From: a virus
Lineage: Duplodnaviria; Caudoviricetes
Direction: 5' to 3' (one strand)
DNA length: 64,000 nucleotides
IMG/VR virus record: IMGVR_UViG_3300033061_001635
Coordinates: 1 to 64,000 of that record
Shown: piece by piece, positions 11,661-28,322 of the stretch
Position numbering within the stretch: position 1 is the first letter of the stretch
Layout of the letters: every line of letters starts with the position of its first letter
Position numbers and translations under genes: made by a program
The notes under the pieces: model-generated
The model's database searches: none
What the model was told of the DNA's origin: nothing
What the model saw: the letters and a program-made list of their open reading frames with translations, nothing else

Positions 11661-11705
11661 TGGGATGATAGTAGTATATTAAGTAATAATTGTCCGGCCT
11701 GCACA

Positions 11706-11733
11706 ATAGTAATTAGTTTTACCGTATAGTCAA
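11706..11733 (-). promoter_or_regulatory. sigma70-like promoter TTGACT-16-TACTAT for the minus-strand glycan operon
   Basis: Read on the reverse complement, about 45 nt upstream of the ATG at 11660. Confidence 0.55.
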
Positions 11734-11757
11734 GCTTAAAAAAAATTAAAAATCCCA

Positions 11758-11786
11758 TTGACACGCATCATTGATAAGAATATAAT
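11758..11786 (+). promoter_or_regulatory. perfect sigma70 promoter TTGACA-17-TATAAT
   Basis: Exact consensus with A-rich UP-like tract upstream; ATG follows 5 nt after the -10. Confidence 0.9.
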
Positions 11787-11791
11787 AGATC

Positions 11792-12013: not shown

Positions 12014-12021
12014 TAGATAAT

Positions 12022-12493: not shown

Positions 12494-12496
12494 CTC

Positions 12497-13069: not shown

Positions 13070-13075
13070 ATCAAG

Positions 13076-13765
13076 ATGACAGCATTTTCTATAGTATTAA
13101 TGTCTAGATCTAGACCTGATATGTTTGAGGGTTTGTGTAAATCCATAAATGAGACATGTTTATTAGACTATGAAATTCATGTGGGATTAGATTCTGATGA
13201 TCCTAATCTATCAGAATATAGTAATATAACAAATAAATATACAAAATGCAAAGTTCATATAGAAAACAGAAATAGTAATCTTCATGTTAGACTAAATTCT
13301 ATGTTAGAAGCAATCTATGGAAAATATATTTTTGTTTTGAATGACGATTGTTTATTAACAACAAGGCATTGGGATAAACAAGCATACGATATACTAAATG
13401 ATTTCGGTGATATTGTTTATGGACGCACCAAAGACAATAGCATAGACAGAGTAGACTCATCTTATGCTGCTTTTCCAATAGTCTCAACAAATGCTGCAAA
13501 AAAATTAGGCTTTATCATGGATGATACTTATGGCAATCACGGATCTGATGTGGTCACATATAGAATATACAATGAAGCAAACAGGGTTGTTGATCTTGGT
13601 TTTCTAAAAATAGACCATATATTACATAATTCTCTTGGTGCTTTAACAATGAGACAAAAAGATACAACGGCTATGGATATGATAAATCGCACAATGTCGG
13701 CAGGATTTAATGTGAATACATTATTCACTATACCTGTCCAAGATAAGGTACAAAAACTTTTATGA
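13076..13765 (+). CDS. GT2-like glycosyltransferase
   Basis: SRSRP, LDSDD, VLNDD, AFPIVS, GSD. Confidence 0.75.
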   Translation: MTAFSIVLMSRSRPDMFEGLCKSINETCLLDYEIHVGLDSDDPNLSEYSNITNKYTKCKVHIENRNSNLHVRLNSMLEAIYGKYIFVLNDDCLLTTRHWDKQAYDILNDFGDIVYGRTKDNSIDRVDSSYAAFPIVSTNAAKKLGFIMDDTYGNHGSDVVTYRIYNEANRVVDLGFLKIDHILHNSLGALTMRQKDTTAMDMINRTMSAGFNVNTLFTIPVQDKVQKLL

Positions 13766-14718
13766 AAATATTAAGTGTCTATAATATATGTGGAATTTCT
13801 AATAGAGAAAATGTAAATTACTATAAAAGCGCATTAGATTCACTAATAGCTCAAACAAATGTTGATCATGATATAGTTATATCTTCTTGTTTATCTAGTG
13901 ATCGTGTAATAGATGAACTAAACGATATTTATCCACAAATAAAAATTAATAATATAAAAGATAAAGTTCCTGTGAATGTTTCATTCAATCATACGTGTAA
14001 TATATTTGATGACAATAGCTATGATGGATTTTTATATATTGATTCTGGTATAATTTTTGCAGAAAGCAACACACTTCCAAATATGGTCGAAATAATGAAC
14101 TCTGGACCATATGCTATGGTATGTTGTACTACAGATACTGATCAAGGTGTTTCGTTGGACAATGTGGGGGATTTAGATTCAGGTGATGGCATAATAACTG
14201 ATTCTGTTGGAAAACAATGCGTTTCTGTAGGATCATCGTTAAATCTACATTGTCAAATATTCTCTAGAAATATCAAAGATTTTTTTGGCAATATCATTCC
14301 TGACATTTTTGCTGGATATTGCACCGAATCTGTTTTTTCATTTATATGTGCCTCAATTAAAAAAAGATGGGCAGTATCTTCTGATATTGTTGCTCATGCT
14401 ATTAGTATAGATGGTCAAAGTTCTGGATTTCATCCAAGTATATGGATGAAAAATACTGGAAGAGACTCATATGACCACCCATTTGCTATAAGTGGATATA
14501 TGGACAGAATATTAAACTCGTATGCGATACAATTAGGTCTAGGTTTTGAAGAATGTAGACATGTATTAATGCATGATCCGAAACAGTATGACAGTGAAAT
14601 GTTTTGTATTAATAATGATCTAAAATATTATATAAAAAATAATTTATATTTAAAATCTAATGAATTTGACTATAATAATATAAAATATAATATCACAGCA
14701 AATAGGACATTAGCATAG
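13762..14718 (+). CDS. putative GT-A glycosyltransferase
   Basis: ALDSLIAQ, SFN, FLYIDSG; cluster context. Confidence 0.55.
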   Translation: MKILSVYNICGISNRENVNYYKSALDSLIAQTNVDHDIVISSCLSSDRVIDELNDIYPQIKINNIKDKVPVNVSFNHTCNIFDDNSYDGFLYIDSGIIFAESNTLPNMVEIMNSGPYAMVCCTTDTDQGVSLDNVGDLDSGDGIITDSVGKQCVSVGSSLNLHCQIFSRNIKDFFGNIIPDIFAGYCTESVFSFICASIKKRWAVSSDIVAHAISIDGQSSGFHPSIWMKNTGRDSYDHPFAISGYMDRILNSYAIQLGLGFEECRHVLMHDPKQYDSEMFCINNDLKYYIKNNLYLKSNEFDYNNIKYNITANRTLA

Positions 14719-14719
14719 C

Positions 14720-15541
14720 ATGACAATCTCAGCACCAAGAATGTATGATAATGGATGGTCTCCAGACTACAAAATTTCTGTTGTTATTCCAACAAGACAA
14801 AGATCAAAATTATTAATTGATTGTTTAAATTCTTTATTAGATAAATCTTATAAAGATGATAGATTATTTGAAGTTATTTTATTGATAGACAATGACGATA
14901 CAGAAACGCTACAAACTGCTATTGAATTACAATCAAAATTTAGTTTTATAAACAAATTTGACAATACCGAATGCAATTCTCTTTTAATAATGATAGTTAA
15001 TAGAAGTGAATACATGCAAAGAGACTACAATAATGCAGGGTCGGTGGCTGCTAAAGGAGAGTTGGTGTTAGTATTAAATGATGATACTATAATGAATACT
15101 GAAAATTGGGATTATATTATATATCAATTTTATCAAGATAATAAAACTAAAGATGATATCATGATGATAGCGATATCTGATAATACTCATAATTCAAATT
15201 CAGAGGACTCTCTTGGACAAATAAGATCAGAAAATACTCATGGTCCATGTTTTCCTATAGTTACAAAAACATTTGTAAACTACATTAAAGGTATTTTCCC
15301 ATCGAATATCAGAATGTGGGGAGTTGATATAATTTTATTTAAGATTTTTCAAAATGTTGATAGGGTCTACAGACTTTATAATATAAGCATAGATCATAAT
15401 TCTTTTCATACATCAAGCAGAGATAAGGATGATATAAATGATTATGTTGCTGATATTAGTGCCAAACCACAATATTTGCCAACAATACCAGAATATATAG
15501 ATTATATTCAATCAATTATAGCTAAAAAAAATAATGTCTAA
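14720..15541 (+). CDS. GT2 glycosyltransferase
   Basis: ISVVIPTRQR, IDNDD, AKGELVLVLNDD, WGVD. Confidence 0.85.
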   Translation: MTISAPRMYDNGWSPDYKISVVIPTRQRSKLLIDCLNSLLDKSYKDDRLFEVILLIDNDDTETLQTAIELQSKFSFINKFDNTECNSLLIMIVNRSEYMQRDYNNAGSVAAKGELVLVLNDDTIMNTENWDYIIYQFYQDNKTKDDIMMIAISDNTHNSNSEDSLGQIRSENTHGPCFPIVTKTFVNYIKGIFPSNIRMWGVDIILFKIFQNVDRVYRLYNISIDHNSFHTSSRDKDDINDYVADISAKPQYLPTIPEYIDYIQSIIAKKNNV

Positions 15542-16028
15542 TATATGTAATGATAAATATATTGATCATAGAGGAGTTATATATACTGTCTATGACAATA
15601 GACAAACAGACATTAAATTTGTTCAGGATAAAGTAACAAAATCTCACAAAGGTGTTATTAGAGGATTCCATGGAGATAATAAAACATGGAAATTAATAAC
15701 TTGTCTAGATGGTATAATTAAACTAATAACTTATGATGTTGATAAAGATATTAAACAAGAATATATTTTAGACTCCAACTCTGAGCAATCAGTGTCAGTA
15801 TTGGTTCCTCCAAGAGTTTTAAATGCCCATCAATGTCTTAGCGAGACATGTATTTTTTATTATAAATGGAGCGAATATTATACTGAACCTGAACATCAGT
15901 GGAGTGTTCGATATAATGATCAAAATATACAACCAAACTGGGATACTAGCCTTTCGCCTATAGTATCTGATAGAGACAACAATTCCTTTTCATTAAACCA
16001 ACTTAAACAATGGATAAACAAGAATTAA
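15534..16028 (+). CDS. rmlC: NDP-4-keto-6-deoxysugar 3,5-epimerase (RmlC family)
   Basis: DHRG, SHKGVIRGFH, KLITC, VSDRD. Confidence 0.85.
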   Translation: MSNICNDKYIDHRGVIYTVYDNRQTDIKFVQDKVTKSHKGVIRGFHGDNKTWKLITCLDGIIKLITYDVDKDIKQEYILDSNSEQSVSVLVPPRVLNAHQCLSETCIFYYKWSEYYTEPEHQWSVRYNDQNIQPNWDTSLSPIVSDRDNNSFSLNQLKQWINKN

Positions 16029-16639
16029 TAGATTTTGAATCTGATATAGGAGAATTATATAAGTCAGCCTCAATACGAGGCCCTATCCATCTGCGTGATG
16101 GAAATGAAGATAGTCTTATAGAAATTTTTCAAAATATAAAATCAGACGATTATGTATACTGTACATGGGCAAACCATTTACATGCTTTGTTAAAAGGCAT
16201 ACCTCAAGATAGAGTCAAGGCTAGGATTTTAGAATCACAGTCTATGGCAATGAATTTTCCAGAATATAAATTCTACACTTCTGCTATAGTCTCTGGAACT
16301 CCTCCCATAGCAATAGGAACAGCATTATCTATTCAAAGAGCCAATCAAACCAATAAAGTTTGGTGCTTTTTAGGAGATATGTCATTTAGATCAGGAATAT
16401 CACATGAATCTATAATGTATGCTATATCTAATAACTTACCAATAACATTTATTATAGAAGATAATAATAAATCGGTAGATACTCCAACTCAAAGTGCTTG
16501 GGGAATTGTTGCTATTAATGATATAATTGAATTCTATAAAAGTTTAATTAATAAATTTAATTCTAACTGTAATATTATATACTACTCATATACCTCAAAT
16601 TATCCACATTCAGGAACAGGTACTTTCGTATCTTTTTAA
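16010..16639 (+). CDS. TPP-dependent enzyme, E1-alpha-like subunit
   Basis: GPIHL..GNE, SAIV, GDMS...EDNN TPP-binding motif. Confidence 0.85.
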   Translation: MDKQELIDFESDIGELYKSASIRGPIHLRDGNEDSLIEIFQNIKSDDYVYCTWANHLHALLKGIPQDRVKARILESQSMAMNFPEYKFYTSAIVSGTPPIAIGTALSIQRANQTNKVWCFLGDMSFRSGISHESIMYAISNNLPITFIIEDNNKSVDTPTQSAWGIVAINDIIEFYKSLINKFNSNCNIIYYSYTSNYPHSGTGTFVSF

Positions 16640-16648
16640 TAAATTAAT

Positions 16649-17167
16649 ATGAAATATATAGAAGAAATAGATCGAGGAATGAAACTTTTAGCTGATAATA
16701 ATACTGTTATTATTGGACAAGCGGTAAGATATAAAGGACATGCAATAACAAGGCAGGCAGCTTTTTGGGAAGAATCAAAAAGAATAGAATTGCCAGTTGC
16801 AGAAGAAATGCAAACAGGAATAGCTCTTGGCATGTCGATTAATGGAGATAAAATAGTATCCATATACCCAAGAATGAATTTTTTAATTTGTGCGGCCAAT
16901 CAGATACTTAATCATTTAGATAAATGGGAGTTGATGGGTGGAGGAATTCCACATATTATATTAAAAGCCGTAATTGGCAGTGAATATCCATTAGATCCCG
17001 GCCATCAACACAAAGCAAACTGGGCGTCAGAAATATCTAACATGTGTGATAAAATAAATGTATTTAATCTGATATATGCTCATCAAGTATATCCAGCATA
17101 TGATTTTTGCATTAATAACAAAGGAGTTCATTTGATAATAGAACACGGAGACTTATACAATGGTTGA
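16649..17167 (+). CDS. TPP-dependent enzyme, E1-beta/transketolase pyrimidine-binding domain only
   Basis: IIGQ, ELPVAEE.QTG.ALG, GHQH. Confidence 0.85.
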   Translation: MKYIEEIDRGMKLLADNNTVIIGQAVRYKGHAITRQAAFWEESKRIELPVAEEMQTGIALGMSINGDKIVSIYPRMNFLICAANQILNHLDKWELMGGGIPHIILKAVIGSEYPLDPGHQHKANWASEISNMCDKINVFNLIYAHQVYPAYDFCINNKGVHLIIEHGDLYNG

Positions 17168-18653
17168 TCTTCTTATTGTTGCTCCATCGGCTGCTGGACT
17201 ATACCAAGATTTAAAAGCGGATTTTTCTGCTAAAGAACCTAATATTTGGGCAGGATTATTGGCTAATTCTATAAGATCCTCATATAGCGTAGCAATTTAC
17301 GATATGGAGATTGAACGCCCCTCACCAGATCAATTTTATGATGCAGTAAAAACATATAATCCAAGACTAGTTCTTTTTGTTGTAACAGGACAGAATCCTA
17401 ACGCATCAACAGCAGCAATGTCAGGAGCAATAGAATCTTCCTCTGTTCTTGGTGATGAGTTTAAAATTGCTTTTGTGGGACCACATATAAATGCACTACC
17501 CACACAAACACTTGAAAAACATAAAGAGATAGATATTTGTCTAACAAATGAAGGAGTATATGCATTAAGAAATCTTTTGGCAAGTAATTTATCAGATAAT
17601 GATTTATCAAAAATAAATGGGATAGCATACAGAGATTCTGACAATAATATAAGATTAAATCCAGCAGAAAAAATAGTTCCTCAAGAATTATTAACACAAG
17701 ATTTACCTGGCATCGCTTACGATTTAATGCCTTCCCTGTCTAAATATAGAACAAGTAGTTGGCATGCTAATTATATAGATGCTGATAGATCTCCATTTGC
17801 AAGTATATATACATCATTAGGCTGCATATATAAATGTGAATTTTGTATGATTAATATTATTAACAGAACGGACAATGATCTAAATAAAGCAGCGTCTTCA
17901 TTCAATACTTTTAGATATTGGGAACCAGAATTTACTATTAATCAATTAGATTATTTAGCTAATCAAGGAGTAAAACAGCTTAAGATAGCTGATGAAATGT
18001 GGGTTTTAAAACCAAAGCATTTTGAAACTTTATGCGATCTTATAATTCAAAGACAATACAATTTTAATATATGGGCATATACCAGAGTAGATACTGTAAA
18101 ACCGCAATATTTAGAAAAACTAAAACAAGCCGGTGTGAATTGGTTAGCACTAGGAATAGAAGCTGGAAATACCGACATTAGAAGAGAAATAACGAAAGGC
18201 AAATTTGAAGATATCAATATACGCCAAGTTGTTAAAATGATACAAGATGCTGGTATAAATGTTTGTGCTAATTATATAGTTGGATTAGGTCATGATACAT
18301 ATGATACAATGCAAGAAACATTAAATTTAGCACTTGAACTAAACGCAGAAAATAGTAATATATATTGTGCAACATCTCTTCCTGGAAGTCCATTATATTT
18401 AAAGGCTGTACAGGAAGGTTGGGAATTGCCACAAGAATATTCTGAGTTTGGATTTTTATCATATGATCATATTCCTAGCAGAACATACTCATTATCATCC
18501 AAACAAGTTTTAGAGTTTAGAGATTATGCCTTCAGAACATTATTTGAAAATCCTAGATTCTTAAATAAGATACAAAATAAATTTGGTGACAAAGCGATAG
18601 AAAATATTAATAAAATGAATAATATTAAATTAAAAAGAAAAATTTTAGAATAA
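17160..18653 (+). CDS. cobalamin-binding radical SAM protein (class B methyltransferase-like)
   Basis: N-terminal B12-domain features (GPH...P, EG), TSLGCIYKCEFC CxxxCxxC, GIEAG, LPGSPLY. Confidence 0.9.
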   Translation: MVDLLIVAPSAAGLYQDLKADFSAKEPNIWAGLLANSIRSSYSVAIYDMEIERPSPDQFYDAVKTYNPRLVLFVVTGQNPNASTAAMSGAIESSSVLGDEFKIAFVGPHINALPTQTLEKHKEIDICLTNEGVYALRNLLASNLSDNDLSKINGIAYRDSDNNIRLNPAEKIVPQELLTQDLPGIAYDLMPSLSKYRTSSWHANYIDADRSPFASIYTSLGCIYKCEFCMINIINRTDNDLNKAASSFNTFRYWEPEFTINQLDYLANQGVKQLKIADEMWVLKPKHFETLCDLIIQRQYNFNIWAYTRVDTVKPQYLEKLKQAGVNWLALGIEAGNTDIRREITKGKFEDINIRQVVKMIQDAGINVCANYIVGLGHDTYDTMQETLNLALELNAENSNIYCATSLPGSPLYLKAVQEGWELPQEYSEFGFLSYDHIPSRTYSLSSKQVLEFRDYAFRTLFENPRFLNKIQNKFGDKAIENINKMNNIKLKRKILE

Positions 18654-18673
18654 ATAAACATAAAGGAAATTAT

Positions 18674-19321
18674 ATGTGCGCAGTTATGAGTAATAAAGAG
18701 ATAGTATTAAGCTCTGATGACAAAGAACTCTCAGAACTTTGCATTGCTTTCGATGATAATTGGGGATCATCAAGTGGCAGAGGAATGCAGCAGTGTTATG
18801 AGGAACTCTATTATCTCAAAAAAATAATTGGAGATCGTAAATTTCATAAAATGTTTGAGATAGGTGTAGATGATGGTGGTACAACGTGGGTTTATGCAAA
18901 TTTATTTGGAGCACCAGAGTCTACATATTATGCTTGTGATCGTCATTTAACAGCGAATATAGACGGTATATCTAAAAAAACCAAAGAAAAATCTAATGTT
19001 AATGTTGTTCCATTACATATGGATGCTCATAATTCTGATTTAACAAATTTTGATTTTGTTCATATAGATGGAGATCATGGATGGGACGAAGCAAAAGCTG
19101 ACTTTGATAGTTACTGGCCTAGGATAAATTCTGGTGGAATATGCATACTTCACGATACCTGTTTATGGCCAGGGTGTATACAATTAAGACAATATGTAGA
19201 AAAATACTATGATTGCATAACCATAAAAGGACATTCGATACTAAGCGGTGGCTTTGGTAATGTTCCTACAGAACCAGGAGAGCAAAAAGGAACTGGAATA
19301 ACCATCGTATTCAAAAATTAA
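18674..19321 (+). CDS. class I SAM-dependent methyltransferase (Methyltransf_24-like)
   Basis: EIGVDDGGT, FVHIDGDH, GGICILHD. Confidence 0.85.
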   Translation: MCAVMSNKEIVLSSDDKELSELCIAFDDNWGSSSGRGMQQCYEELYYLKKIIGDRKFHKMFEIGVDDGGTTWVYANLFGAPESTYYACDRHLTANIDGISKKTKEKSNVNVVPLHMDAHNSDLTNFDFVHIDGDHGWDEAKADFDSYWPRINSGGICILHDTCLWPGCIQLRQYVEKYYDCITIKGHSILSGGFGNVPTEPGEQKGTGITIVFKN

Positions 19322-19349
19322 TAAACCACCTAATAGGAAATAATATTAA

Positions 19350-20483
19350 ATGAAAAGAATAGAATTCGGCCATTTAGCTATTGGAGATATAGCCAAAAAG
19401 CATATTCAAGATTGTTTAGACACTAATTGGATCAGCATGGGTCCAAAAACAGAACTGCTAGAAGAAAAATTTGCTAAAATCATGGGCACAAAATATGCCA
19501 TAGCGACATCTAGTGGAACATCTTCTTTAGTTGCTATGACTTTAGCTTTGCCAGAAATATGTAAACGTAAAGTTATTAGAGGAAAAAGTAATGTTATTTG
19601 TCCAGCTTTGGGATTTATAGCTAACAGCACTGGAATAGTATCTGGGCGATTAAAACCTAAATGGGTAGATATAAAACCAGAAACTCTAAATATTAATGAA
19701 GAACTAGTAGAGGATGCAATTGATGAGGATACTGTAGCTATCTACCCCATAGGTACAATGGGCAGGCCATCAGAAATGGATAAACTACGAGATATTGCTG
19801 AAAAATATGATTTAATATTATTTGAAGATAGTTGTGAAAATTATGGAAGCAAATTTAAAGGTAAATTTAGTCATAGCTATGCGATAGGAGGATGTTCTTC
19901 TTTGTTTCAAGCTCATTTAGTTCAAGCTGGTGAGGGATCTTTAATATATACTGATGACGAAAAATTAAAAGATTTGATTACCAGCATAAGGTCTCATGGA
20001 AGAATTGGTAAAAGTGCTTATTTTGATCATATAAGATTCGGTAGCAATTTTAAAACTACTGATTTATGTGCAGCTATTGCTCTTGAAGGCGTGGATCAGT
20101 TTCATGAGAATATTAAGCAAAGAAAAAATATATGGTTAGAATTAGTAAATTTTTCCAAACAATACTCTGAATCTGCTTGGTTTAGTGATGAGCCAATTTA
20201 TATGGAGGTTATGCCACACGGATTCAGTATAACAGTTAAACCGACTTTCGACAAAAAGATAGAACAATTAACTACATTATTTGATAAGTACAATATACAT
20301 TGGAAAAGAAATTTTGGATTTTGTGGACATCATACAGGAATGAAAGAATTTATTGATAATAAAGCATCTTATGATTCTGCTATCTATTGTGGTAATAATG
20401 GTATCCATATAGGTACTCATAGATATATGATACCAGAAAATATTGAGCGTATTAAAACTGCTATGAAAGAATTTTTCCAATAA
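19350..20483 (+). CDS. DegT/DnrJ-fold PLP/PMP enzyme, His-type; probable NDP-4-keto-6-deoxysugar 3-dehydratase (ColD/RfbH-like)
   Basis: SSGTSS, EDSCE and SLFQAHLVQAGEG with His at the usual catalytic Lys position. Confidence 0.8.
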   Translation: MKRIEFGHLAIGDIAKKHIQDCLDTNWISMGPKTELLEEKFAKIMGTKYAIATSSGTSSLVAMTLALPEICKRKVIRGKSNVICPALGFIANSTGIVSGRLKPKWVDIKPETLNINEELVEDAIDEDTVAIYPIGTMGRPSEMDKLRDIAEKYDLILFEDSCENYGSKFKGKFSHSYAIGGCSSLFQAHLVQAGEGSLIYTDDEKLKDLITSIRSHGRIGKSAYFDHIRFGSNFKTTDLCAAIALEGVDQFHENIKQRKNIWLELVNFSKQYSESAWFSDEPIYMEVMPHGFSITVKPTFDKKIEQLTTLFDKYNIHWKRNFGFCGHHTGMKEFIDNKASYDSAIYCGNNGIHIGTHRYMIPENIERIKTAMKEFFQ

Positions 20484-20531
20484 ATAGACTAAAATCACTA
20501 CTTATATATATATCAAACGGAGTGTCTTATA

Positions 20532-21038
20532 ATGAATTTAATAGAAACAAATCAAGCAATATCTTTAATAAATCAACAAGATCGTGACTTATTATTAGCA
20601 TCAATTAATGATGCCAGTCAAATTATTCTTATTGGCAATGGCGGAAGTAATGCAACAGCATCTCATATTGCTGTAGATTATATAAAATTCTTAAACAAGA
20701 AATCTCTGGCTTTCTCAGACCCCACTATGCTTACTGCTTCTATGAATGACTATGGAGTAGAAAATGCTTATGCTAAATTTATAGACAGCTATAAAGATAA
20801 TAATACCCTTGTGATTCTAATATCTTCATCAGGAAATTCGTTAAACATATTTAATTCTGCAAAATATTGTTATGAAAATAATATTAAATTTATTTTGTTA
20901 ACAGGTTTTGATGCTGATAACAAAATTAGAAAAGAGTTTGGCCATCATGCAGTATTGGATTATTGGATAAATTCTAAAAGTTATGGAGTCGTTGAATGTG
21001 TACATCAAATATTTTTACATTCAATAATAGATAATTAA
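20532..21038 (+). CDS. gmhA: phosphoheptose isomerase (SIS domain)
   Basis: GNGGS..ASH, NDYG, ISSSGNS.N, VECVH. Confidence 0.85.
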   Translation: MNLIETNQAISLINQQDRDLLLASINDASQIILIGNGGSNATASHIAVDYIKFLNKKSLAFSDPTMLTASMNDYGVENAYAKFIDSYKDNNTLVILISSSGNSLNIFNSAKYCYENNIKFILLTGFDADNKIRKEFGHHAVLDYWINSKSYGVVECVHQIFLHSIIDN

Positions 21039-21039
21039 T

Positions 21040-22089
21040 ATGAATTTTTATGGAAGAAAACATCCTATATTCTCTACTCTTGTAGAGCAAAAAATAAAAA
21101 AAATTACCTATACTCCTATTAGACATCATCCTATTTATATAGAAAAAAATGAACTTGAAAATAATAGCAAATACTTTATACATGCAGATTTACCAATTAT
21201 TGACCCAGATGCTAACATAGAATATATTTTTAATTTTGAAGATCAATGCACATTATATCACTCTATAAATAATGGCAATACATTTAATATTGATTTTAAA
21301 AATCATCCAGAAACTATTAATATTAAAAATGCATTAGAAGATAGTAGATGTAAAAAAATTATCTGTCATATAAAAAAAATGGCCGAAGCATTGCCAAACC
21401 TAACAAATAGTGATATAATCGCTAAAAAAACAGTATATAAAAAAATAGGCATCAATACAAAAAATAATCTTTTATCTGTTGATAGATCTAATTTTACAAT
21501 TTTATTTACAAATTCATACCATGATGATCCAAATAATTTTTTCTTAAGAGGTGGACATTTTCTACTAGAAGCAGTAAAACTTCTAAATCAAAAATATGAT
21601 AATATTAAACTAATTATTAGATCTCAAATACCAGCCCAGATACCAGGAGATTTACTTTCAAATTATAATATTAAAGTATATAATATGAAAATGGAAGATG
21701 AAGATATTGATTTTTTATATAGACAGTCTGATGTTGTAGTATTACCATCAATAAGAGTACATAGCCATTCCTTATGCGAGGCACTATCATATGGTCTCCC
21801 AGTAATAACAACAAACGGCTGGGGAATAGAAGAATTTATACAGCATAGATATAATGGTTATATTATCAATGGATTTGAAAAACTATCTTGGCATGATAAC
21901 AATGTTGGATGTATCGAAAAATATATTAATTTATATGATCATCAAACAGTAACAGATACTATTAATCAATTATACTACTACTTAGAACATTTATTATTAA
22001 ATAAAAATGATTTATTGCTACTTAAAACAAATAGCATAAATTCTGCTAAAACATATACATTAGACAATTGGAACGAATGGACAATATAA
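21040..22089 (+). CDS. GT4-like (GT-B) glycosyltransferase
   Basis: RGG..LLEA, DVVVLPS, EALSYGLPVITT. Confidence 0.85.
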   Translation: MNFYGRKHPIFSTLVEQKIKKITYTPIRHHPIYIEKNELENNSKYFIHADLPIIDPDANIEYIFNFEDQCTLYHSINNGNTFNIDFKNHPETINIKNALEDSRCKKIICHIKKMAEALPNLTNSDIIAKKTVYKKIGINTKNNLLSVDRSNFTILFTNSYHDDPNNFFLRGGHFLLEAVKLLNQKYDNIKLIIRSQIPAQIPGDLLSNYNIKVYNMKMEDEDIDFLYRQSDVVVLPSIRVHSHSLCEALSYGLPVITTNGWGIEEFIQHRYNGYIINGFEKLSWHDNNVGCIEKYINLYDHQTVTDTINQLYYYLEHLLLNKNDLLLLKTNSINSAKTYTLDNWNEWTI

Positions 22090-22125
22090 AATAAAACCAA
22101 TAACACTAAAAAAGATTAAAACATT

Positions 22126-23076
22126 ATGAAAATATTAATTACTGGTGCCGCAGGATACATTGGCAGTTCGCTATGTCAACACATTGTTAAAACTTTACCA
22201 AATGTAAAAATAGCAGCTTTTGACAATTTATACTACAATCAATGGAAATATGTAAAATCTTATTTAGACCATCCACAAATAGATTTTTATAATGAAGACA
22301 TCCTTGATTGGTCAAATAACTTAATAAATAATATAAAAACTGCAGATTATATTGTTTGTTTAGCAGCAATAGTTGGTGCGCCAGCATGTGATAAAATTCC
22401 TGAATTATCAACTAGTATAAATTATACTTGGTATACACATTTATTGAAGCAAGTTACTGCACAACAAAAAATCTTATATCCAAATACTAATTCTGGGTAC
22501 GGAACAACTCCAGAAGGTAGCGTATGCACAGAAACAAGTCCCTCTAATCCTATATCATTATATGGTAAACTAAAACAAAATACTGAAATGCTATTATTAA
22601 AAGAATATAATAACGTTGTTTGTTTTAGACTGGCTACTGTTTTTGGTTTGTCTGGCCGACCAAGACTAGATTTATTGGTTAACAATTTTGTTTATAAAGT
22701 AAGCAAAACTAATAAACTAGATATTTATGATGGAAACTTTAGAAGAAATTTTATATCTGTTTATGATATATGTAGAGCTTTTGTATTTGGAATTAATAAT
22801 TTTGATCAAATGCGTGGACAAGTATATAATCTGGGTGCAGATTCATTAAATTCTACAAAGTTGGATTTTGCTAAACAAATTCAAAAGGTTATAGGTTGCG
22901 AAATAGTAGAACATAACGAAACGACAGATCCTGATAAAAGAGACTATCTTGTTAGTAGTCAAAAACTATATGATTTAGGCTTTAGTATCGAAGATACTAC
23001 TCTTGATCGTAATATAATAGAATTATATAATTTTTGTAAAGACTTAACAGACACGACTGGGATGTTTAACTACTAA
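22126..23076 (+). CDS. NAD-dependent sugar epimerase/dehydratase/reductase (extended SDR)
   Basis: ITGAAGYIG, LAAIVG, YGKLK (YxxxK). Confidence 0.9.
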   Translation: MKILITGAAGYIGSSLCQHIVKTLPNVKIAAFDNLYYNQWKYVKSYLDHPQIDFYNEDILDWSNNLINNIKTADYIVCLAAIVGAPACDKIPELSTSINYTWYTHLLKQVTAQQKILYPNTNSGYGTTPEGSVCTETSPSNPISLYGKLKQNTEMLLLKEYNNVVCFRLATVFGLSGRPRLDLLVNNFVYKVSKTNKLDIYDGNFRRNFISVYDICRAFVFGINNFDQMRGQVYNLGADSLNSTKLDFAKQIQKVIGCEIVEHNETTDPDKRDYLVSSQKLYDLGFSIEDTTLDRNIIELYNFCKDLTDTTGMFNY

Positions 23077-24041
23077 TGATAATTTCTAAAACTCCATATA
23101 GAATATCTTTATTCGGCGGGTCAACAGACTATGAATCATTTTATTCAAAACACGGATCATTGTTAGTAGGATTTGCTATTGATAAATATTCTTATATTAT
23201 GGTTAGAAATAATCCATATATATTTGATTATATATCTAAAATATCATATTCAAAAATAGAAACAGTTAGTAATAATAAGGATATACAACACAACGGAGTT
23301 CGTGGAGTATTAGAATATTTTAATTTATTAGACGAGAGATTAGAAATATCTTGCTTGAGCGACCTTCCAGCACAAACAGGAACAGGATCATCTTCAACAT
23401 TTATTGTTGGACTAATTAATGCTTTAAGATATAGATATAAATATTCTACCAAAGAATTAGCTAATTATGCAATCAAAATAGAAAGACAACATCTTAATGA
23501 GATCGGAGGTATACAAGATCAAATATGGGCGGCATATGGTGGTTTTAATTCCATTTCTATTGATACTTCTGGAGACTTTTCTGTTAGACCTTTGCCGATC
23601 TCTGAAAATTTTATTAATAAATTTATCGACCATTCTTTCTTAATATATACAGGCAATCAAAGGCAATCTTTTCAAATAGCAACAGCACACGACACAGGAA
23701 GTGACGATAAGAATAAAATAGATATTCTCAGATTGGCACATGATGGATATGATGCTTTTTGCAGAGAAAACATATCAGACATCGGTAGCCTGCTTAAAGA
23801 GTCATGGGAATCTAAAAAGAGGATATCGTCTTTGATATCAGTATCAAAAACAGACGAGCTTATGGACAGTTTGAGTCAATCAGGTATGATTGGAGGAAAA
23901 TTGATAGGGAGTGGAGGATCAGGATTCGTATTTGGAATTACAAAAAATAAAGAAGATAAATTACAAATTCAAAAAAACTTTTTTAATAATTTTATAGACT
24001 TAAATGTTTCTAAAACTGGATCTATTATTATAAATGAATAA
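23076..24041 (+). CDS. hddA: D-glycero-D-manno-heptose-7-phosphate kinase (GHMP family)
   Basis: TPYRISLFGGSTD, PAQTGTGSSS, GGIQDQ..AAYGG, GKLIGSGGSG. Confidence 0.85.
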   Translation: MIISKTPYRISLFGGSTDYESFYSKHGSLLVGFAIDKYSYIMVRNNPYIFDYISKISYSKIETVSNNKDIQHNGVRGVLEYFNLLDERLEISCLSDLPAQTGTGSSSTFIVGLINALRYRYKYSTKELANYAIKIERQHLNEIGGIQDQIWAAYGGFNSISIDTSGDFSVRPLPISENFINKFIDHSFLIYTGNQRQSFQIATAHDTGSDDKNKIDILRLAHDGYDAFCRENISDIGSLLKESWESKKRISSLISVSKTDELMDSLSQSGMIGGKLIGSGGSGFVFGITKNKEDKLQIQKNFFNNFIDLNVSKTGSIIINE

Positions 24042-24489
24042 AAAAAGAATAGGTATCGTCTCCGGATACTTCAATCCAATCCATATTGGGCACATCGAAT
24101 ATATAAATTCTGCAAAAGAGAAATGCGACTATTTAATTTGTATTGTAAATAATGACTACCAAGTACAATTAAAAAAATCCACTGAATTTATGGACGAAAA
24201 ACATAGGCTATCTATAGTAAGTAATCTTAAATCTGTAGACAAAGCAGTATTATCTATAGATACAGATTCATCTATTTCCTCTACTTTAGAGCTATTAACC
24301 AATGATATGAATCATAATAGTATAGAAATATTCTTTTTTAATAGTGGAGATAGATCTATTAATAATGAAAACTTACAAGAAAAACATATTTGTGATAAAA
24401 ATAATATTAACAGAGTTTTTATCCGTTTGCCAAAAATATTTTCTTCTTCTGAATTAAAACGGAATTTTTCCTCTAAGAATATCAAATAA
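24034..24489 (+). CDS. cytidylyltransferase-like (HIGH) nucleotidyltransferase
   Basis: SGYFNPIHIGH, VNND, SGDR, SSS. Confidence 0.85.
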   Translation: MNKKRIGIVSGYFNPIHIGHIEYINSAKEKCDYLICIVNNDYQVQLKKSTEFMDEKHRLSIVSNLKSVDKAVLSIDTDSSISSTLELLTNDMNHNSIEIFFFNSGDRSINNENLQEKHICDKNNINRVFIRLPKIFSSSELKRNFSSKNIK

Positions 24490-24750
24490 CATTACCCAAT
24501 CTGCACATTTTGCTAATACTGGGTTCTTAAATGCTGCTGGTTTATTTTTTTCAAAATAGAAATGTCCAGACCATGCAAATGGATACACTATGAAAGGAGT
24601 TAATGGTAATAGTAATAAAAACCATCCTCTAAAATATAAAACAGTACACACAAACGTAATAGTTAATAGCTGACCCAAAACGTGCAACCTTCTACAAGTT
24701 TTATTTTGATGTAAACTTAAATAATGTTGATAATATTCTTTAAAAGTCAT
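24454..24750 (-). CDS. DUF962/Mpo1-like membrane protein
   Basis: YLSLH...RRLH, AWSGHFYFEKNKPA; AGAGGT SD before ATG 24750. Confidence 0.85.
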   Translation of the reverse strand: MTFKEYYQHYLSLHQNKTCRRLHVLGQLLTITFVCTVLYFRGWFLLLLPLTPFIVYPFAWSGHFYFEKNKPAAFKNPVLAKCADWVMLFDILRGKIPF

Positions 24751-24752
24751 AA

Positions 24753-25100
24753 TTATACCTCTAAATTTTGAAATCCAGTATCTCTGTCTAGTGCTACAGC
24801 GCAACTAGTAATTGTTCCATTCGGCTTGGTGTCATTTATTAAGACTCTTGGGCCAGAAGGTAATCCCATAATTAATTCATCAAAGAAAAGACCAAAATTC
24901 AATAATTGATTTTCTGTTGCTTTTCTACAGCCCTGTGGTCTTGCGGTGGTTAATACTATATAGTATTCTTTTTCTCTCCACTCTAAAAATTTATCGATAA
25001 CACCAGGAAGTATCTCTGCTTTAATTAGCATCTTATTTAATGTTTTTTGATGTTTAAATATTGTACCGTCAATATCACAAAAAATTGTTTTTCTAGTCAT
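24753..25100 (-). CDS. small HAD-superfamily phosphatase
   Basis: FCDIDGT, TTAR, INDTK. Confidence 0.8.
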   Translation of the reverse strand: MTRKTIFCDIDGTIFKHQKTLNKMLIKAEILPGVIDKFLEWREKEYYIVLTTARPQGCRKATENQLLNFGLFFDELIMGLPSGPRVLINDTKPNGTITSCAVALDRDTGFQNLEV

Positions 25101-25135
25101 TTAAAAATTAATAGTTAATGTTTACAAATACCTGA

Positions 25136-25228
25136 TTATAGTAGTTTGGACTGCCAGAATAGCAAGATTCCTATACTCATGAATACGAATAAAAACCTCT
25201 TGCTAAACGCATGACTGACGAGTATAAT
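25136..25228. promoter_or_regulatory. divergent sigma70-like promoters: plus TTGCTA-17-TATAAT (25200-25228); minus TTGCTA-16-TACTAT
   Basis: The two -35 boxes form the inverted repeat TAGCAAGA (25160)...TCTTGCTA (25198) at a strand switch. Confidence 0.65.
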
Positions 25229-25273
25229 ACACATGATTGGTACGAAACTAAACAACAAAAATTTGGTGAAATC

Positions 25274-25411
25274 GTGGATCCCTTTTTAATAATTTGCTTT
25301 ATTGTTGCTATACTAGGTGGTATTGTATCTGGAATAAATAATCTATCTAATGATAGAACCACTCATCATTCTAAAAATATTTTTACTTTTTTCTTTTGTG
25401 ATAGATATTAA
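25274..25411 (+). CDS. small single-TM membrane protein
   Basis: GTG start after GGTGA; hydrophobic FLIICFIVAILGGIV. Confidence 0.5.
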   Translation: MDPFLIICFIVAILGGIVSGINNLSNDRTTHHSKNIFTFFFCDRY

Positions 25412-25941
25412 TGAATAGATTAAATAATCAGCGAGTTTATTTAGCTGGTGCTATGGATAGGGTAGCGGATAGAGGAAATGGTTGGAGAGACAATATAACA
25501 CCATTTCTTCAGTCTCTTAATATTATAGTTTTTAATCCTATAAAAAAACCCACAGCTATTGGTCAAGAAGATGAAGTAACACATAAGCATAAAATTAAAT
25601 TAAAAAATGCTGGAAAATACGATGAATTGTCTCAGCTAATGAAGACGATTAGATCTGTTGATCTTAGATTAGTAGACATAAGTGATTTCTTAATTGTAAA
25701 TCTCGATCTTGATATTCATCCTTGCGGAACATATGAAGAAATTTTTTGGGCAAACCGTCAAAAGAAACCTATCGTAATACATATGGTTCAGGGGAAAGAA
25801 AACGCTCCGGATTGGTTATTCGGTACTGTTCCTCATAAAATGATTTTTTCTTCTTGGGATGATATTAAGTCTTATCTTAGTGAGATTAATTCACAAAAAG
25901 AAATCAATACCTACAATAGATGGTATTTTTTTAATATATAG
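25411..25941 (+). CDS. nucleoside 2-deoxyribosyltransferase / nucleotide N-glycosidase-like protein
   Basis: VYLAGAM, FNP, DL..VD.SD, GTYEE, KPI. Confidence 0.8.
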   Translation: MNRLNNQRVYLAGAMDRVADRGNGWRDNITPFLQSLNIIVFNPIKKPTAIGQEDEVTHKHKIKLKNAGKYDELSQLMKTIRSVDLRLVDISDFLIVNLDLDIHPCGTYEEIFWANRQKKPIVIHMVQGKENAPDWLFGTVPHKMIFSSWDDIKSYLSEINSQKEINTYNRWYFFNI

Positions 25942-25942
25942 C

Positions 25943-26146
25943 ATGCCAAAATATTATGTAAAATCTGGTCAAATAAAATTTATAGTTGATTGCACCGACC
26001 ATATATGTGCGATCCTTGCTGCCTTAACTCACTATAAAGGTAAGGGTATAATAACTGGTCCAAAAATTTGTATTAGTGAACAAGGTTTTGAAGATTTTCG
26101 TCACTGGAAATGTTATGATACTGATAAATATTTAAAGGATGCTTGA
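25943..26146 (+). CDS. hypothetical protein
   Basis: MPKYYVKSG start directly after the upstream stop. Confidence 0.55.
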   Translation: MPKYYVKSGQIKFIVDCTDHICAILAALTHYKGKGIITGPKICISEQGFEDFRHWKCYDTDKYLKDA

Positions 26147-27270
26147 TGCAAAAAATTATTAATGAAATAAAACTAGATTTTGACGATGTTCTTATTCGCC
26201 CCAAAAGATCAACACTAAATAGTCGATCCGATGTGTGCATTCAAAGAGAATTCAAATTTAAATATTCTCCACGAAAATTATTAGCTGTTCCTATTATGGT
26301 TGCTAACATGGATACTGTTGGAACTTTTGCTATGGCGAAATCATTGATTAAGCAAAATGCAATAACCTGTTTACATAAACACTATAATTCAGTAGATTAT
26401 GTAGCATTTTACACTGATCATAGTATAGCTAATAAAAATCTTGTCTTTTATTCCATTGGTACTAGTGAGAAAGACATTAACAAAGCGATAGATGTATTTG
26501 ATCAAATCAAAACTCTTGGATTTGAAACTCCTAACATCTGTTTAGATGTTGCAAATGGATATACGCAACAGTTTGTTAAAATTGCTCGTAAAATAAGAAA
26601 TTTATATCCAGAATCAGTTATTATGGCTGGTAATGTTGTAACTCCAGAAATGACAGAAGAACTCATTATTCATGGTCAGGTTGATATAGTTAAGGTTGGT
26701 ATAGGTTCAGGCAGTGTATGTACCACACGTTTAAAAACCGGCGTAGGATACCCCCAATTGAGCGCCGTGATGGAATGTTCTGACGCTGCTCATGGTCTTG
26801 GAGGACATATCTGTTCTGATGGTGGATGCAAAGTAGTCGGAGATATTTGCAAAGCATTTGGTGGAAATGCTGATTTTGTTATGCTAGGCAGCATATTTGC
26901 TGGTACAGACGAGTGTGAGGGAGAATGGAAATATGAGTATTTGAACAACGATAATATATGGGAGAAATTGAAGCAGGATCAAAGCCCTATAGATTCTAGA
27001 AGGTTAAGAAAGTCCTACCTATCATTTTATGGAATGAGTAGTGAAAATGCTATGAATAAACACCATAATGGAGTAGCAAAATACAGAACAGCAGAAGGTA
27101 AATGTGTAACTGTTCCATACAAAGGAACGGCTGAAGAAATTATACAAGATATCTATGGTGGCTTAAGAAGTGCTAGTACATATATTGGAGCAAATAAAAT
27201 TAAAGATTTTGGTAAAAAAACAACATTTATACAAGTAAATAATACGCATAATAAGGTATATGAAAAATGA
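26146..27270 (+). CDS. guaC: GMP reductase
   Basis: LDFDDVLIRPKRSTLNSR, ANMD, DVANGY, KVGIGSGSVCTTR, YGMSS, EGK. Confidence 0.95.
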   Translation: MQKIINEIKLDFDDVLIRPKRSTLNSRSDVCIQREFKFKYSPRKLLAVPIMVANMDTVGTFAMAKSLIKQNAITCLHKHYNSVDYVAFYTDHSIANKNLVFYSIGTSEKDINKAIDVFDQIKTLGFETPNICLDVANGYTQQFVKIARKIRNLYPESVIMAGNVVTPEMTEELIIHGQVDIVKVGIGSGSVCTTRLKTGVGYPQLSAVMECSDAAHGLGGHICSDGGCKVVGDICKAFGGNADFVMLGSIFAGTDECEGEWKYEYLNNDNIWEKLKQDQSPIDSRRLRKSYLSFYGMSSENAMNKHHNGVAKYRTAEGKCVTVPYKGTAEEIIQDIYGGLRSASTYIGANKIKDFGKKTTFIQVNNTHNKVYEK

Positions 27271-28322
27271 AGATTAATTTTTGTTCGCCTATTAATAATA
27301 CTGGCTATGGCATAGCCTCATTGAATATTCTTAAAGAATTGCATAAAATAAGTGACGTAACATATTTACCCATAGGACAACCAGGACTGTCATCACAAGA
27401 AGATTATGATTTAGTATTTAAATTATTCAATAAAAAACCAACCTGTGATATTAATGCTCCATGTTTTAAAATTTGGCATCAGTTTGATCTGTTTGAGCAT
27501 TTTGGCAAAGGACAATATATAGCCTATCCTTTTTTTGAATTAGATACTTTTAATAGTTACGAAATTAAAAGCTTGAGTGTCCCTGATGCAATATGTGTGA
27601 GTAGCGAATGGGCCAAAAGTATTGTTGAAAAACATTTAGACACAAAATGTCATGTTGTGCCCTTGGGCGTGAATAGAGAAATTTTTCATGAAAATTATAA
27701 AAAAGAAAATAATGATAAATATATATTTTTAAATATTGGAAAATGGGAAGTTAGAAAAGGTCATGATATTTTATATAACTTATTCACACAAGCGTTTCCA
27801 AAAGAAAAAGATGTTGAATTATGGATTTTAGCATCAGAGAACACCAATAATTATTCTTCTGCTGATGAATTATCAAAATGGAAAGATATGTATTCTGGAG
27901 ATAGTCGAATAAAATTATTTTCTGGAGTAGAAAATCATCAAAACATAGCTGAACTAATATCTAATTGTGATTGCGGAATATACCCATCACGAGCAGAAGG
28001 CTGGAATTTAGAATTGCTAGAAACTATGAGTATGAACAAACCAGTTATAGCAACAAATTATTCGGCCCATACAGAATTTTGCAATAAAGAGAATTCTTAT
28101 CTTATTGATATAGAAGAAACAGAAAAAGCCTACGACGGTAAGGCTTTTATTGGTCAAGGAAATTGGGCAAAATTAGGTCAAAACCAAATTGATCAAATTA
28201 TAGAGCATATGAGATATGCTTATAATAATAAAATAAATACTAATCTTAATGGAATAAAAACGGCTAAAAAGTATTCTTGGGAGAATGCTGCTCAACAACT
28301 TGTGAGGTGTATTTCTAAGTAG
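27267..28322 (+). CDS. GT4 glycosyltransferase
   Basis: TGYG, RKGHD, PSRAEGWNLELLE. Confidence 0.9.
   Translation: MKINFCSPINNTGYGIASLNILKELHKISDVTYLPIGQPGLSSQEDYDLVFKLFNKKPTCDINAPCFKIWHQFDLFEHFGKGQYIAYPFFELDTFNSYEIKSLSVPDAICVSSEWAKSIVEKHLDTKCHVVPLGVNREIFHENYKKENNDKYIFLNIGKWEVRKGHDILYNLFTQAFPKEKDVELWILASENTNNYSSADELSKWKDMYSGDSRIKLFSGVENHQNIAELISNCDCGIYPSRAEGWNLELLETMSMNKPVIATNYSAHTEFCNKENSYLIDIEETEKAYDGKAFIGQGNWAKLGQNQIDQIIEHMRYAYNNKINTNLNGIKTAKKYSWENAAQQLVRCISK

Follow-up and report, generated by a model that had tools for sequence, protein, structure and literature searches.

Capsular heptoses of Campylobacter jejuni are made as guanosine diphosphate (GDP) sugars by a pathway in which GmhA, HddA, GmhB and HddC are joined by Cj1427, a pyridoxal phosphate (PLP)-dependent C3-dehydratase, C3/C5 epimerases and C4-reductases (PMC10680097). 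In vitro work by the Raushel group has shown that Cj1427 and the Campylobacter PLP C3-dehydratase (HS:5) yield GDP-D-glycero-3-deoxy-4-keto-heptose (PMC10680097). The known sugar branchings by thiamine diphosphate (ThDP) enzymes all use 3-deoxy-4-keto acceptors produced with a His-type dehydrase, and in the yersiniose, erwiniose and caryophyllose systems (YerE/YerF, ErwE/ErwF) the enzyme is a single-chain flavoprotein of the acetolactate synthase/pyruvate oxidase (ALS/POX) family, followed by a branch ketoreductase (PMC9306805). Pairs resembling E1 alpha and beta subunits have been genetically implicated in the two-carbon C4 branching of nucleoside diphosphate (NDP)-4-keto deoxysugars, as with Plm8/Plm9 of paulomycin, in a study that cites the avilamycin pathway as a further case (PMC4802897). 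Among phages, HY126 (AfhE/AfhF) and RB69 (gp51-55) encode a SIS isomerase, an anomeric kinase, a mini-HAD phosphatase and a nucleotidyltransferase (PMC13326640). Here we analyse a window of 64,000 nucleotides, the first 64 kb of the 175,133-bp virus record IMGVR_UViG_3300033061_001635 (Duplodnaviria; Caudoviricetes), which comes from an uncultured phage and contains an operon (13076-24489) that unites relatives of the Campylobacter heptose enzymes with a two-gene ThDP enzyme, a cobalamin-binding radical S-adenosylmethionine (SAM) enzyme (hereafter rSAM) and glycosyltransferases.

We regard it as fairly probable that this operon encodes a phage-borne nucleotide-heptose tailoring pathway. It is single and compact, with all genes on the plus strand and overlaps or gaps of no more than 48 nt (Table 1), and every gene named in a preliminary description that had been made from the DNA letters is present at its stated position and backed by Pfam and NCBIfam profile searches. 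At the equivalog level the NCBIfam scores of the operon enzymes are all well under their cut-offs, so these enzymes are divergent. Four of them point independently to heptose. The SIS isomerase matches NF001628 and TIGR00441 at E 1e-15 to 1e-16, both under cut-off, and its top 13 solved relatives in the PDB are all phosphoheptose isomerases. The GHMP kinase scores 113 bits against the HddA model NF049969 (cut-off 600) and has as its top solved relatives the heptose kinases 3k85, 4n3o and 4usk (E 6e-28 to 2e-23), suggesting that it is probably an HddA-like heptose-7-phosphate anomeric kinase. The RmlC-like cupin finds its top solved relatives in the GDP-D-glycero-4-keto-D-lyxo-heptose 3- and 3,5-epimerases of C. 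jejuni (E 1e-21), with the deoxythymidine diphosphate (dTDP) RmlC enzymes about seven orders of magnitude worse (E 8e-15 to 1e-8); it is thus probably a C3/C5 epimerase of an NDP-4-keto-heptose. Finally, the short-chain dehydrogenase/reductase (SDR) aligns over residues 2-304 of 316 with PDB entry 6vo6 (E 3.7e-67, 230 bits; the next SDR gives E 5e-16), which we take to be the C. jejuni GDP-heptose C4-dehydrogenase Cj1427. Heptose enzymes being the best solved relatives in all four cases, for the SDR provided that 6vo6 is Cj1427, the heptose origin advanced in the preliminary description is supported.

If 6vo6 is indeed Cj1427, the SDR would probably be a C4-dehydrogenase producing the 4-keto sugar that the epimerase and the 3-dehydratase both require; since it would make this sugar itself, no 4,6-dehydratase would be needed. 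The 3-dehydratase is a DegT-family enzyme whose top solved relatives are the ColD structures 2gms and 3gr9, and it aligns over its full length with the GDP-4-keto-6-deoxymannose 3-dehydratase ColD. The His of its motif SLFQAHLV falls on ColD His188, the residue altered in 3b8x and 2r0t; this column is His in every aligned homologue from phage contigs (10 contigs) and in 60 of 66 sequences of the cellular-locus DegT alignment, in agreement with the assignment as a His-type 3-dehydratase. By analogy, the phage SDR and DegT enzymes are predicted to make the same type of 3-deoxy-4-keto-heptose intermediate as that obtained in vitro from Cj1427 and the HS:5 dehydratase (PMC10680097). For the isomerase, kinase, SDR, 3-dehydratase and cupin alike, the closest solved or named relatives belong to the C. 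jejuni-type pathway or its orthologues (for the SDR, under the label assumed above), several being enzymes of C. jejuni itself, at identities of about 25-45%. The phage cluster departs from the C. jejuni pathway in having a HIGH-fold enzyme for HddC and no C4-reductase, and in adding the ThDP pair, the B12 radical SAM enzyme and a methyltransferase.

The same set of genes recurs in 11 phage relatives, comprising four IMG/VR contigs, one mis-binned contig of a metagenome-assembled genome (MAG) and six further assembly contigs, whose rSAMs are 69-87% identical to that of this phage. The rSAM, the ThDP pair (in the mini or the longer Transketolase_C form) and the SDR occur together in all 11; DegT is present in 10 and the kinase in nine, these nine also having the His-type DegT, while the HIGH-type nucleotidyltransferase is found in seven. 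The RmlC-like gene occurs in 8 of the 11 phage loci versus 3 of 80 cellular loci, and a homologue of the ThDP alpha subunit in 11 of 11 and 58 of 80, respectively. The co-occurrence of the module genes is far beyond chance, and their order is shuffled between the phage contigs, which argues for selection on the gene set rather than on synteny. The islands also differ by cassettes (extra SDRs, DJ-1, cupins, a Kdo-type set). One contig, L017, carries at 12898-15993 an inserted Kdo-type cassette (CTP_transf_3, DAHP_synth_1, transaldolase, MptE-like) and L016 is otherwise identical to it; thus, cassette exchange occurs within the island. Maximum-likelihood analysis groups the 12 phage rSAMs in a single clade (SH-aLRT 100) on a long stem, and this clade is not nested inside any sampled bacterial group, which speaks for long retention in phages and not for recent capture. 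The locus L006 (JBJKZS010000018.1, binned as Neomarinimicrobiota) has an rSAM inside the phage clade, neighboured by a phage-type ThDP pair and a His-type DegT, and is probably a phage contig within the MAG bin; its rSAM appears frameshifted, being matched in two tblastn pieces.

The module is also widespread in bacteria. A word-seeded search yielded scores of E 1e-10 or better for 4,358 rSAM homologues, and a profile-guided scan of one genome per species matched at least 600 stretches, from which the best 80 loci were taken for analysis. Their labels come from roughly ten phyla and include Planctomycetales, Omnitrophota, Verrucomicrobiota, Nitrospira, Chloroflexota, Pelagibacteraceae single cells, Betaproteobacteria and Thioglobus; cultured methanotrophs with an rSAM homologue are Methylomonas rivi, Methylotuvimicrobium sp. 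KM1 and Methylomicrobium sp. wino1. Among the 38 cellular loci of at least 15 kb, 34 have the full core (rSAM, DegT, kinase, SDR and ThDP pair), the kinase occurs in 35, and an HddC-type PF00483 enzyme in 31. The genes of the phage operon therefore keep each other's company in both phage and cellular loci. Some of the latter have a GT9 heptosyltransferase, LptD, ManC, Ugd and GT2/GT4 enzymes as neighbours, and these lipopolysaccharide (LPS)-type genes mark them as envelope-glycan regions. The earlier suggestion that the phage makes its own exotic sugar thus holds insofar as it has its own gene set; the module is, however, no phage invention, and the phage genes are one branch of a bacterial set. 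One bacterial locus, L021 (GCA_048270185.1, a 1.78-Mb contig), combines a GHMP kinase and a split transketolase with four DegT genes and no fewer than five genes for B12 radical SAM enzymes. The two of its DegT proteins that were aligned both have Lys at the Schiff-base position, and the locus encodes a different, more elaborate sugar pathway.

Phages and bacteria part company at the activation step. The HIGH-motif nucleotidyltransferase matches RfaE domain II (E 3e-13) and 3glv (E 2e-9), carries the motif GYFNPIHIGH, and its gene overlaps that of the kinase by 8 nt; the two adjoin in relatives too. Gene-family clustering of the fetched loci places it in a family of seven members from phage loci only, and tblastn with it gave a single weak match in a cellular locus (34% identity). 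Conversely, a search for HddC-type PF00483 in the whole phage genome returned one sub-threshold match only, of 14.6 bits at 63.8 kb. With HddC-type enzymes in the bacterial modules and the HIGH-type in phages, it follows that the phages have replaced HddC by a HIGH-fold enzyme, and this partner of HddA is as atypical as the preliminary description held it to be. The STTR5 motif marks promiscuous heptose nucleotidyltransferases (PMC11573728); the equivalent stretch in the phage enzyme, aligned by eye only, is LPKIFSSS, with Phe at the Arg position. The 7-phosphate could be removed by the mini-HAD phosphatase encoded just downstream, whose DIDGT and TTAR motifs are invariant among five homologues and whose gene adjoins HddA on the same strand in L001. 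The top fold match of its model (pLDDT 75) is AfhF of phage HY126 (E 6e-4, TM-score 0.57), followed by the GmhB structures 3l8h, 3l8e and 2gmw (E 2e-3 to 1e-2). AfhF, an arabinose-1,5-bisphosphate 5-phosphatase, and GmhB both act on sugar 1,omega-bisphosphates, from which they take the distal phosphate (PMC13326640). Hence the mini-HAD fits the GmhB role proposed for it as a weak, model-based candidate: the gene and its motifs are there, and the role is suggested by weak fold matches. An arabinose-type cassette, prompted by the AfhF match, was set aside, because the isomerase and kinase resemble heptose enzymes and not KdsD or APH-type ones.

The two ThDP subunits combine intact cofactor motifs with small size. 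The alpha-like subunit has a GDM-x26-NN motif (GDM...EDNN) and scores 77 bits against TIGR03182 (cut-off 394); the beta-like subunit has a PVAEE...G motif that includes the cofactor-activating Glu, and scores 27 bits against its NCBIfam model (cut-off 321). In relatives the latter is either of the same mini form or of about 300 aa with Transketolase_C. A true pyruvate dehydrogenase, the refuting case named in the preliminary description, is ruled out, since no E2 (2-oxoacid_dh) was found in the phage genome, the subunits are miniature, beta being without its C-terminal domain, and the scores are far under cut-off. The pair is like Plm8/Plm9 in being a two-gene E1-type ThDP enzyme in a nucleotide-sugar cluster with no E2 or E3, encoded beside a 3,5-epimerase and enzymes generating a deoxy-4-keto acceptor (PMC4802897); its subunits are much shorter (209 and 172 aa), beta lacks Transketolase_C, and the predicted acceptor is a heptose. 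With YerE/YerF and ErwE/ErwF it shares, as predicted C4 electrophile, a 3-deoxy-4-keto NDP-sugar from a His-type 3-dehydrase (PMC9306805), whereas it is E1-type, is accompanied by no reductase, has a heptose scaffold and is joined by a class B rSAM. No single-chain TPP_enzyme_N/M/C protein of the YerE type occurs in the phage cluster, although one is present in the SAR11 locus L024 (Pelagibacteraceae single amplified genome AG-426-L15). There, at 6289-12393, the rSAM is surrounded by this ALS/YerE-type protein of 566 aa and by long and mini E1-like pairs, three ThDP enzymes that hint at several C-C bond formations on one SAR11 sugar. A C4-ketoreductase that could finish the phage sugar is absent: apart from gmd, the Cj1427-like enzyme is the sole SDR of the whole genome, which makes C4 carboligation the simplest fate for the keto group. 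The relatives L013 and L016 have extra SDRs.

The rSAM, the signature gene product of the module, is like the class B cobalamin enzymes that act on carbohydrates in having an N-terminal B12 domain and a CxxxCxxC core. It scores 34.2 bits against PF02310 (cut-off 32.1) and 61.9 bits against PF04055, and its cysteines (C222/C226/C229) are invariant in 30 homologues. HpnJ is its top NCBIfam match, at 123 bits (cut-off 578); falling under every family cut-off, it represents a separate, uncharacterised class B subfamily. Its best 120 homologues, at 67-97% identity, all come from metagenome or MAG assemblies, and cellular homologues are 43-51% identical. GenK and the Fom3-type enzymes are class B C-methyltransferases, and C-methylation is the commonest chemistry of the class; it also has rearranging members (HpnJ, BchE, OxsB), from which methylases cannot be separated by sequence alone. 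C-methylation is thus the most likely reaction, with rearrangement or cyclisation possible. Its tight linkage to heptose and ThDP genes distinguishes the phage enzyme from the named class B enzymes. In many rSAM homologues (P0104, P0127, P0128, P0134 and others), which reach 640-940 aa, the match is split in two, and one of these proteins contains an intein domain (PF14890); the gene thus appears to have been a repeated target of intein invasion. A connection with the bicyclic C10 sugar bradyrhizose was considered, since a heptose, a C2 branch and a methyl group add up to ten carbons and HpnJ-like enzymes form carbocycles. It was dropped, as the sole genetic evidence on the making of bradyrhizose points to a dTDP-glucose 4,6-dehydratase cluster (PMC4743980). 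The SAM methyltransferase and the GT4 gene at 21 kb, both listed earlier as pathway members, are present but accessory, because both are missing from the syntenic contig L012. Methyltransferases of the same Pfam family lie in similar places in L001 and L014 and are only weakly related, and this GT4 has no homologue among the related loci.

Taken together, these comparisons suggest the following pathway, in which the steps through NDP-3-deoxy-4-keto-heptose are supported by homology and the ThDP, rSAM and methyltransferase steps are inferred. GmhA would convert sedoheptulose-7-phosphate to D-glycero-D-manno-heptose-7-phosphate, the HddA-like kinase would place a phosphate on C1, the mini-HAD could remove the 7-phosphate in GmhB-like fashion, and the HIGH-type nucleotidyltransferase would form the NDP-heptose. 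The Cj1427-like SDR would then oxidise C4 and the ColD-like enzyme would eliminate the 3-hydroxyl, giving NDP-3-deoxy-4-keto-heptose, with the RmlC-like cupin possibly epimerising C5, or C3 ahead of deoxygenation. Next, the E1-like ThDP enzyme would decarboxylate an alpha-keto acid, most simply pyruvate, and deliver the acyl anion to the C4 carbonyl. The resulting 4-C-acyl-branched tertiary alcohol would explain why the cluster has no C4-reductase. The cobalamin rSAM would modify an unactivated carbon, most likely by C-methylation and possibly by radical rearrangement or cyclisation, and the accessory SAM methyltransferase may add a further methyl group in this phage. The most likely product is thus an rSAM-modified NDP-3-deoxy-4-C-branched heptose, from which the GT-A and GT-B transferases of the island would pass the sugar to an acceptor. 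The interpretation given in the preliminary description is supported overall: heptose, dehydration and co-occurrence hold, and C4 branching, the role of the rSAM and the target stay inferential.

Table 1. Features of the operon and its flanks (positions in the window)
Feature	Position	Strand	Basis
Sigma70-type promoter consensus, TTGACA-17-TATAAT	11758..11786	+	12/12 matches; divergent gap upstream of operon
GT2 glycosyltransferase, 229 aa	13076..13765	+	PF00535, E 3e-6
318-aa protein, predicted GT-A fold, probable glycosyltransferase	13762..14718	+	AlphaFold pLDDT 79, pTM 0.84
GT2 glycosyltransferase, 273 aa	14720..15541	+	PF00535, E 1.5e-8
RmlC-like cupin epimerase	15534..16028	+	PF00908, E 1e-23
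ThDP enzyme, E1-alpha-like PP-domain subunit, 209 aa	16010..16639	+	PF00676 (E1_dh), E 2e-13
ThDP enzyme, E1-beta-like Pyr-domain subunit, 172 aa, without C-terminal domain	16649..17167	+	PF02779 (Transket_pyr), E 3e-6
Cobalamin-binding (class B) radical SAM enzyme, 497 aa, module signature gene	17160..18653	+	PF02310 and PF04055
SAM methyltransferase (Methyltransf_24), accessory	18674..19321	+	PF13578, E 2e-12
DegT-family PLP/pyridoxamine phosphate enzyme, His at Schiff-base position, ColD-like 3-dehydratase	19350..20483	+	PF01041, E 1e-58
GmhA-like sedoheptulose-7-phosphate isomerase (SIS)	20532..21038	+	NF001628, E 3.5e-16
GT4 glycosyltransferase, accessory	21040..22089	+	PF00534, E 2.5e-13
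SDR, probable NDP-heptose C4-dehydrogenase (Cj1427-like)	22126..23076	+	PDB 6vo6 match, YxxxK kept
HddA-like GHMP kinase (heptose-7-phosphate anomeric kinase)	23076..24041	+	NF049969 HddA, E 2e-32
HIGH-motif (cytidylyltransferase-fold) nucleotidyltransferase, 151 aa	24034..24489	+	PF01467, E 3e-13
Mini-HAD phosphatase, 115 aa, candidate GmhB equivalent	24753..25100	-	DIDGT and TTAR motifs
Second GT4 glycosyltransferase, downstream	27267..28322	+	PF00534/PF13692, about E 1e-14

Several observations weigh against this pathway. As no enzyme reaches its equivalog cut-off, substrates could differ from those assigned. The HIGH-type fold normally takes beta-heptose-1-phosphate from HldE-type kinases, not the alpha-anomer made by HddA, and HpnJ, the named family closest to the rSAM, is not a methyltransferase. 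GmhA lies within 10 kb in just 2 of the 11 phage relatives and in 11 of the 80 cellular loci, and the mini-HAD, with its weak match (E 6e-4, pLDDT 75), is encoded on the opposite strand and present in only 4 of the 11 relatives. The C4-dehydrogenase reading of the SDR depends on 6vo6 being Cj1427, and a YerF-like branch ketoreductase is absent from this phage. Two further points, the presence of gmd and the manner in which the ThDP enzyme and rSAM are tied to the sugar, each open the way to a different reading.

The 4,6-dehydratase gene that the preliminary description had suggested seeking in the rest of the genome does exist, outside the cluster: gmd (genome 156791-157783, minus strand; L010:6792-7784) is a near-equivalog (TIGR01472, 387 bits, cut-off 415) situated outside the window, about 130 kb from the operon, beside the large terminase gene. 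Although the SDR probably supplies the 4-keto group, gmd could feed the ColD-like enzyme GDP-4-keto-6-deoxymannose, in which case the late enzymes would act on a hexose: this compound would be converted to GDP-4-keto-3,6-dideoxymannose (the colitose intermediate) and branched by the ThDP enzyme to a yersiniose-like octose, while GmhA, HddA and the nucleotidyltransferase would serve a separate, plain heptose. In line with such a route, no solved structure is closer to the DegT enzyme than ColD, and the characterised ThDP branchings all use 3,6-dideoxy-4-keto hexoses (PMC9306805). Yet gmd is remote from the cluster and is not part of the conserved module; it did not come out as a conserved partner in the clustering of fetched loci (in which SDR subtypes were not separated). 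Moreover, DegT is directly followed by the adjoining Cj1427-like SDR and HddA genes in L001, L003, L004 and L016, and the SDR and epimerase resemble heptose-specific enzymes far more than hexose ones. We therefore consider the hexose route decidedly unlikely. Rather, gmd could supply a separate GDP-6-deoxyhexose, or else help to make a 6-deoxy form of the heptose product, given that C. jejuni has gmd-family enzymes that work as GDP-heptose 4,6-dehydratases (PMC10680097).

The ThDP enzyme and the rSAM are linked to the sugar by their gene neighbourhood alone. They may instead build a non-sugar substituent, such as a methylated acyloin, a hydroxyalkyl or a phosphonate-like head group, that is later joined to a plain 3-deoxy-heptose glycan. 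A ThDP decarboxylase is also paired with a class B rSAM in phosphonate pathways, models of the P-methyltransferases PhpK and Sden_1168 match the phage rSAM, and the host could supply the C4-reductase or aminotransferase missing from the cluster. A phosphonate pathway itself, with a ThDP decarboxylase and a P- or C-methylating rSAM, is ruled out by the lack of phosphoenolpyruvate mutase in the phage genome, and locus clustering found no acyl carrier, ligase or transferase family co-conserved with the pair. In addition, the ThDP genes lie between the epimerase and the rSAM/DegT genes in overlapping reading frames and, with a single SDR in the cluster, no phage enzyme would resolve the keto group if C4 chemistry did not. 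A non-sugar role accordingly strikes us as rather unlikely, and we retain the branching and modification of a heptose as the more probable function of the pair.

Four glycosyltransferases (GTs) had been counted in the cluster, one of them being the 318-aa protein, which has no Pfam or NCBIfam match. In Foldseek its model retrieves SpsA, TarP, GtrB, the LH3 GT domain and KdsB (E about 1e-6, TM-score about 0.45); with this predicted GT-A fold, the count of four stands. The gene occurs in seven phage loci and in no cellular locus, and in L012 it is fused to the next GT2 gene to code for a 592-aa protein. The GT2 at 13076 has homologues in L004, L012, L016, L017 and L019, and the downstream GT4 at 27267 is 63% identical in L012 and 41% in L019. 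There are at least eight GT-like genes in the surrounding 25-kb island.

The same pathway might serve hypermodification of the phage DNA, glycosylated bases (glucosyl-, arabinosyl- or heptosyl-cytosines) blocking restriction. Phage biosynthetic gene clusters containing a HAD, a cytidylyltransferase and a GT-B attach heptose to 5-hydroxymethylcytosine (bioRxiv 10.1101/2023.12.21.572611), AfhF, the top fold match of the mini-HAD, belongs to a DNA arabinosylation pathway, and genes resembling nucleoside 2-deoxyribosyltransferase and the IMPDH/GMP-reductase family lie just downstream (25411-27270, both kept in L012). The phage genome, however, has no ThyA-like, ThyX or C5-cytosine methyltransferase gene, which leaves DNA glycosylation unsupported. 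A Tet/JBP search of it gave no match, the search control itself having matched no genome. The GT-like genes of the island exceed those of known DNA systems, and the homologous bacterial modules stand beside LPS-type genes in some loci. The predicted activation route follows the same logic as the DNA-arabinosylation cassettes of HY126 and RB69; the locus differs from them in that its kinase is GHMP rather than APH-like, its sugar is another one and no base-hydroxylating or hydroxymethylating enzyme was found in the genome. A DNA target is thus very unlikely. Given that the module is the phage branch of a bacterial set that is LPS-adjacent in some loci, its product is probably a bacterial-type surface sugar, which the phage would probably attach either to the host envelope or to proteins of its own. 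Export of an O-antigen on a lipid carrier by the phage itself was rejected, since a hydropathy scan of its genome revealed no Wzx-, Wzy- or WaaL-like polytopic protein. Remodelling of the host envelope through host machinery and glycosylation of phage proteins may both apply, and neither is favoured. The product of the first gene of the window (1-869), about 300 aa in length, consists of PPGPP/SPPSPP repeats and, after them, a Cys-rich domain; the open reading frame (ORF) starts 43 nt ahead of the point where the record's end meets its start, and it adjoins trypsin-like and subtilase genes. This repeat protein is a possible glycosylation acceptor.

The record has 34% G+C, is rated complete by CheckV and is classed as linear by IMG/VR. 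The phage encodes a split DnaE-type polymerase, a ribonucleotide reductase, a DnaB-type helicase, a primase and a UvsX-like recombinase, and its large terminase shares just 24% identity with the counterparts in Bacillus siphoviruses. Among 50,697 phage records, tblastn with the rSAM gave no match and the SDR and large terminase gave distant matches only; no sequenced phage isolate is close to this phage. The promoter-like sequence upstream of the operon is the sole perfect sigma70 match within 11000-26500, where the overall number of promoter-like matches is not higher than chance. Between the nucleotidyltransferase and the mini-HAD lies a minus-strand ORF (24454-24804) that overlaps the 3' end of the former and sits where L012 and L019 have an Mpo1-like (PF06127) gene.

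The early steps of the pathway are already known from Campylobacter, and ThDP branching from Yersinia and actinomycete antibiotics; in the literature we found no description of a heptose pathway combined with an E1-type ThDP ligase and a cobalamin rSAM, of its distribution or of the phage clade. We tentatively offer, at somewhat less than even confidence, a joint reading for the bacterial and phage loci: the module would specify a class of higher-carbon sugar not described so far, a 3-deoxy heptose with a 4-C-acyl branch in which radical chemistry adds a C-methyl group or closes a carbocycle. It would be a widespread envelope constituent among many little-studied Gram-negative lineages (Omnitrophota, Planctomycetota, Verrucomicrobiota, Nitrospira, SAR11 and methanotrophs), and an old lineage of large aquatic phages, with its swapped nucleotidyltransferase, would have kept its own version to display or remodel that sugar during infection. 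If the proposal is true, this would be a new branch of nucleotide-heptose chemistry, yielding a sugar type not yet in glycan databases, and the first pairing found of a ThDP C-C ligase and a cobalamin rSAM on an NDP-heptose. Solving one pathway would then provide annotations for many cell-envelope loci, among them ones from SAR11, Nitrospira and cultured methanotrophs. It would also mean that phages retain a complex module of 9-10 genes over the long term. The deep phage clade and the non-orthologous activation enzyme would argue that the sugar matters for phage fitness, and its role would lie in superinfection exclusion, receptor masking or virion glycosylation. Finally, the need for cobalamin would predict that these phages depend on B12-replete hosts or communities.

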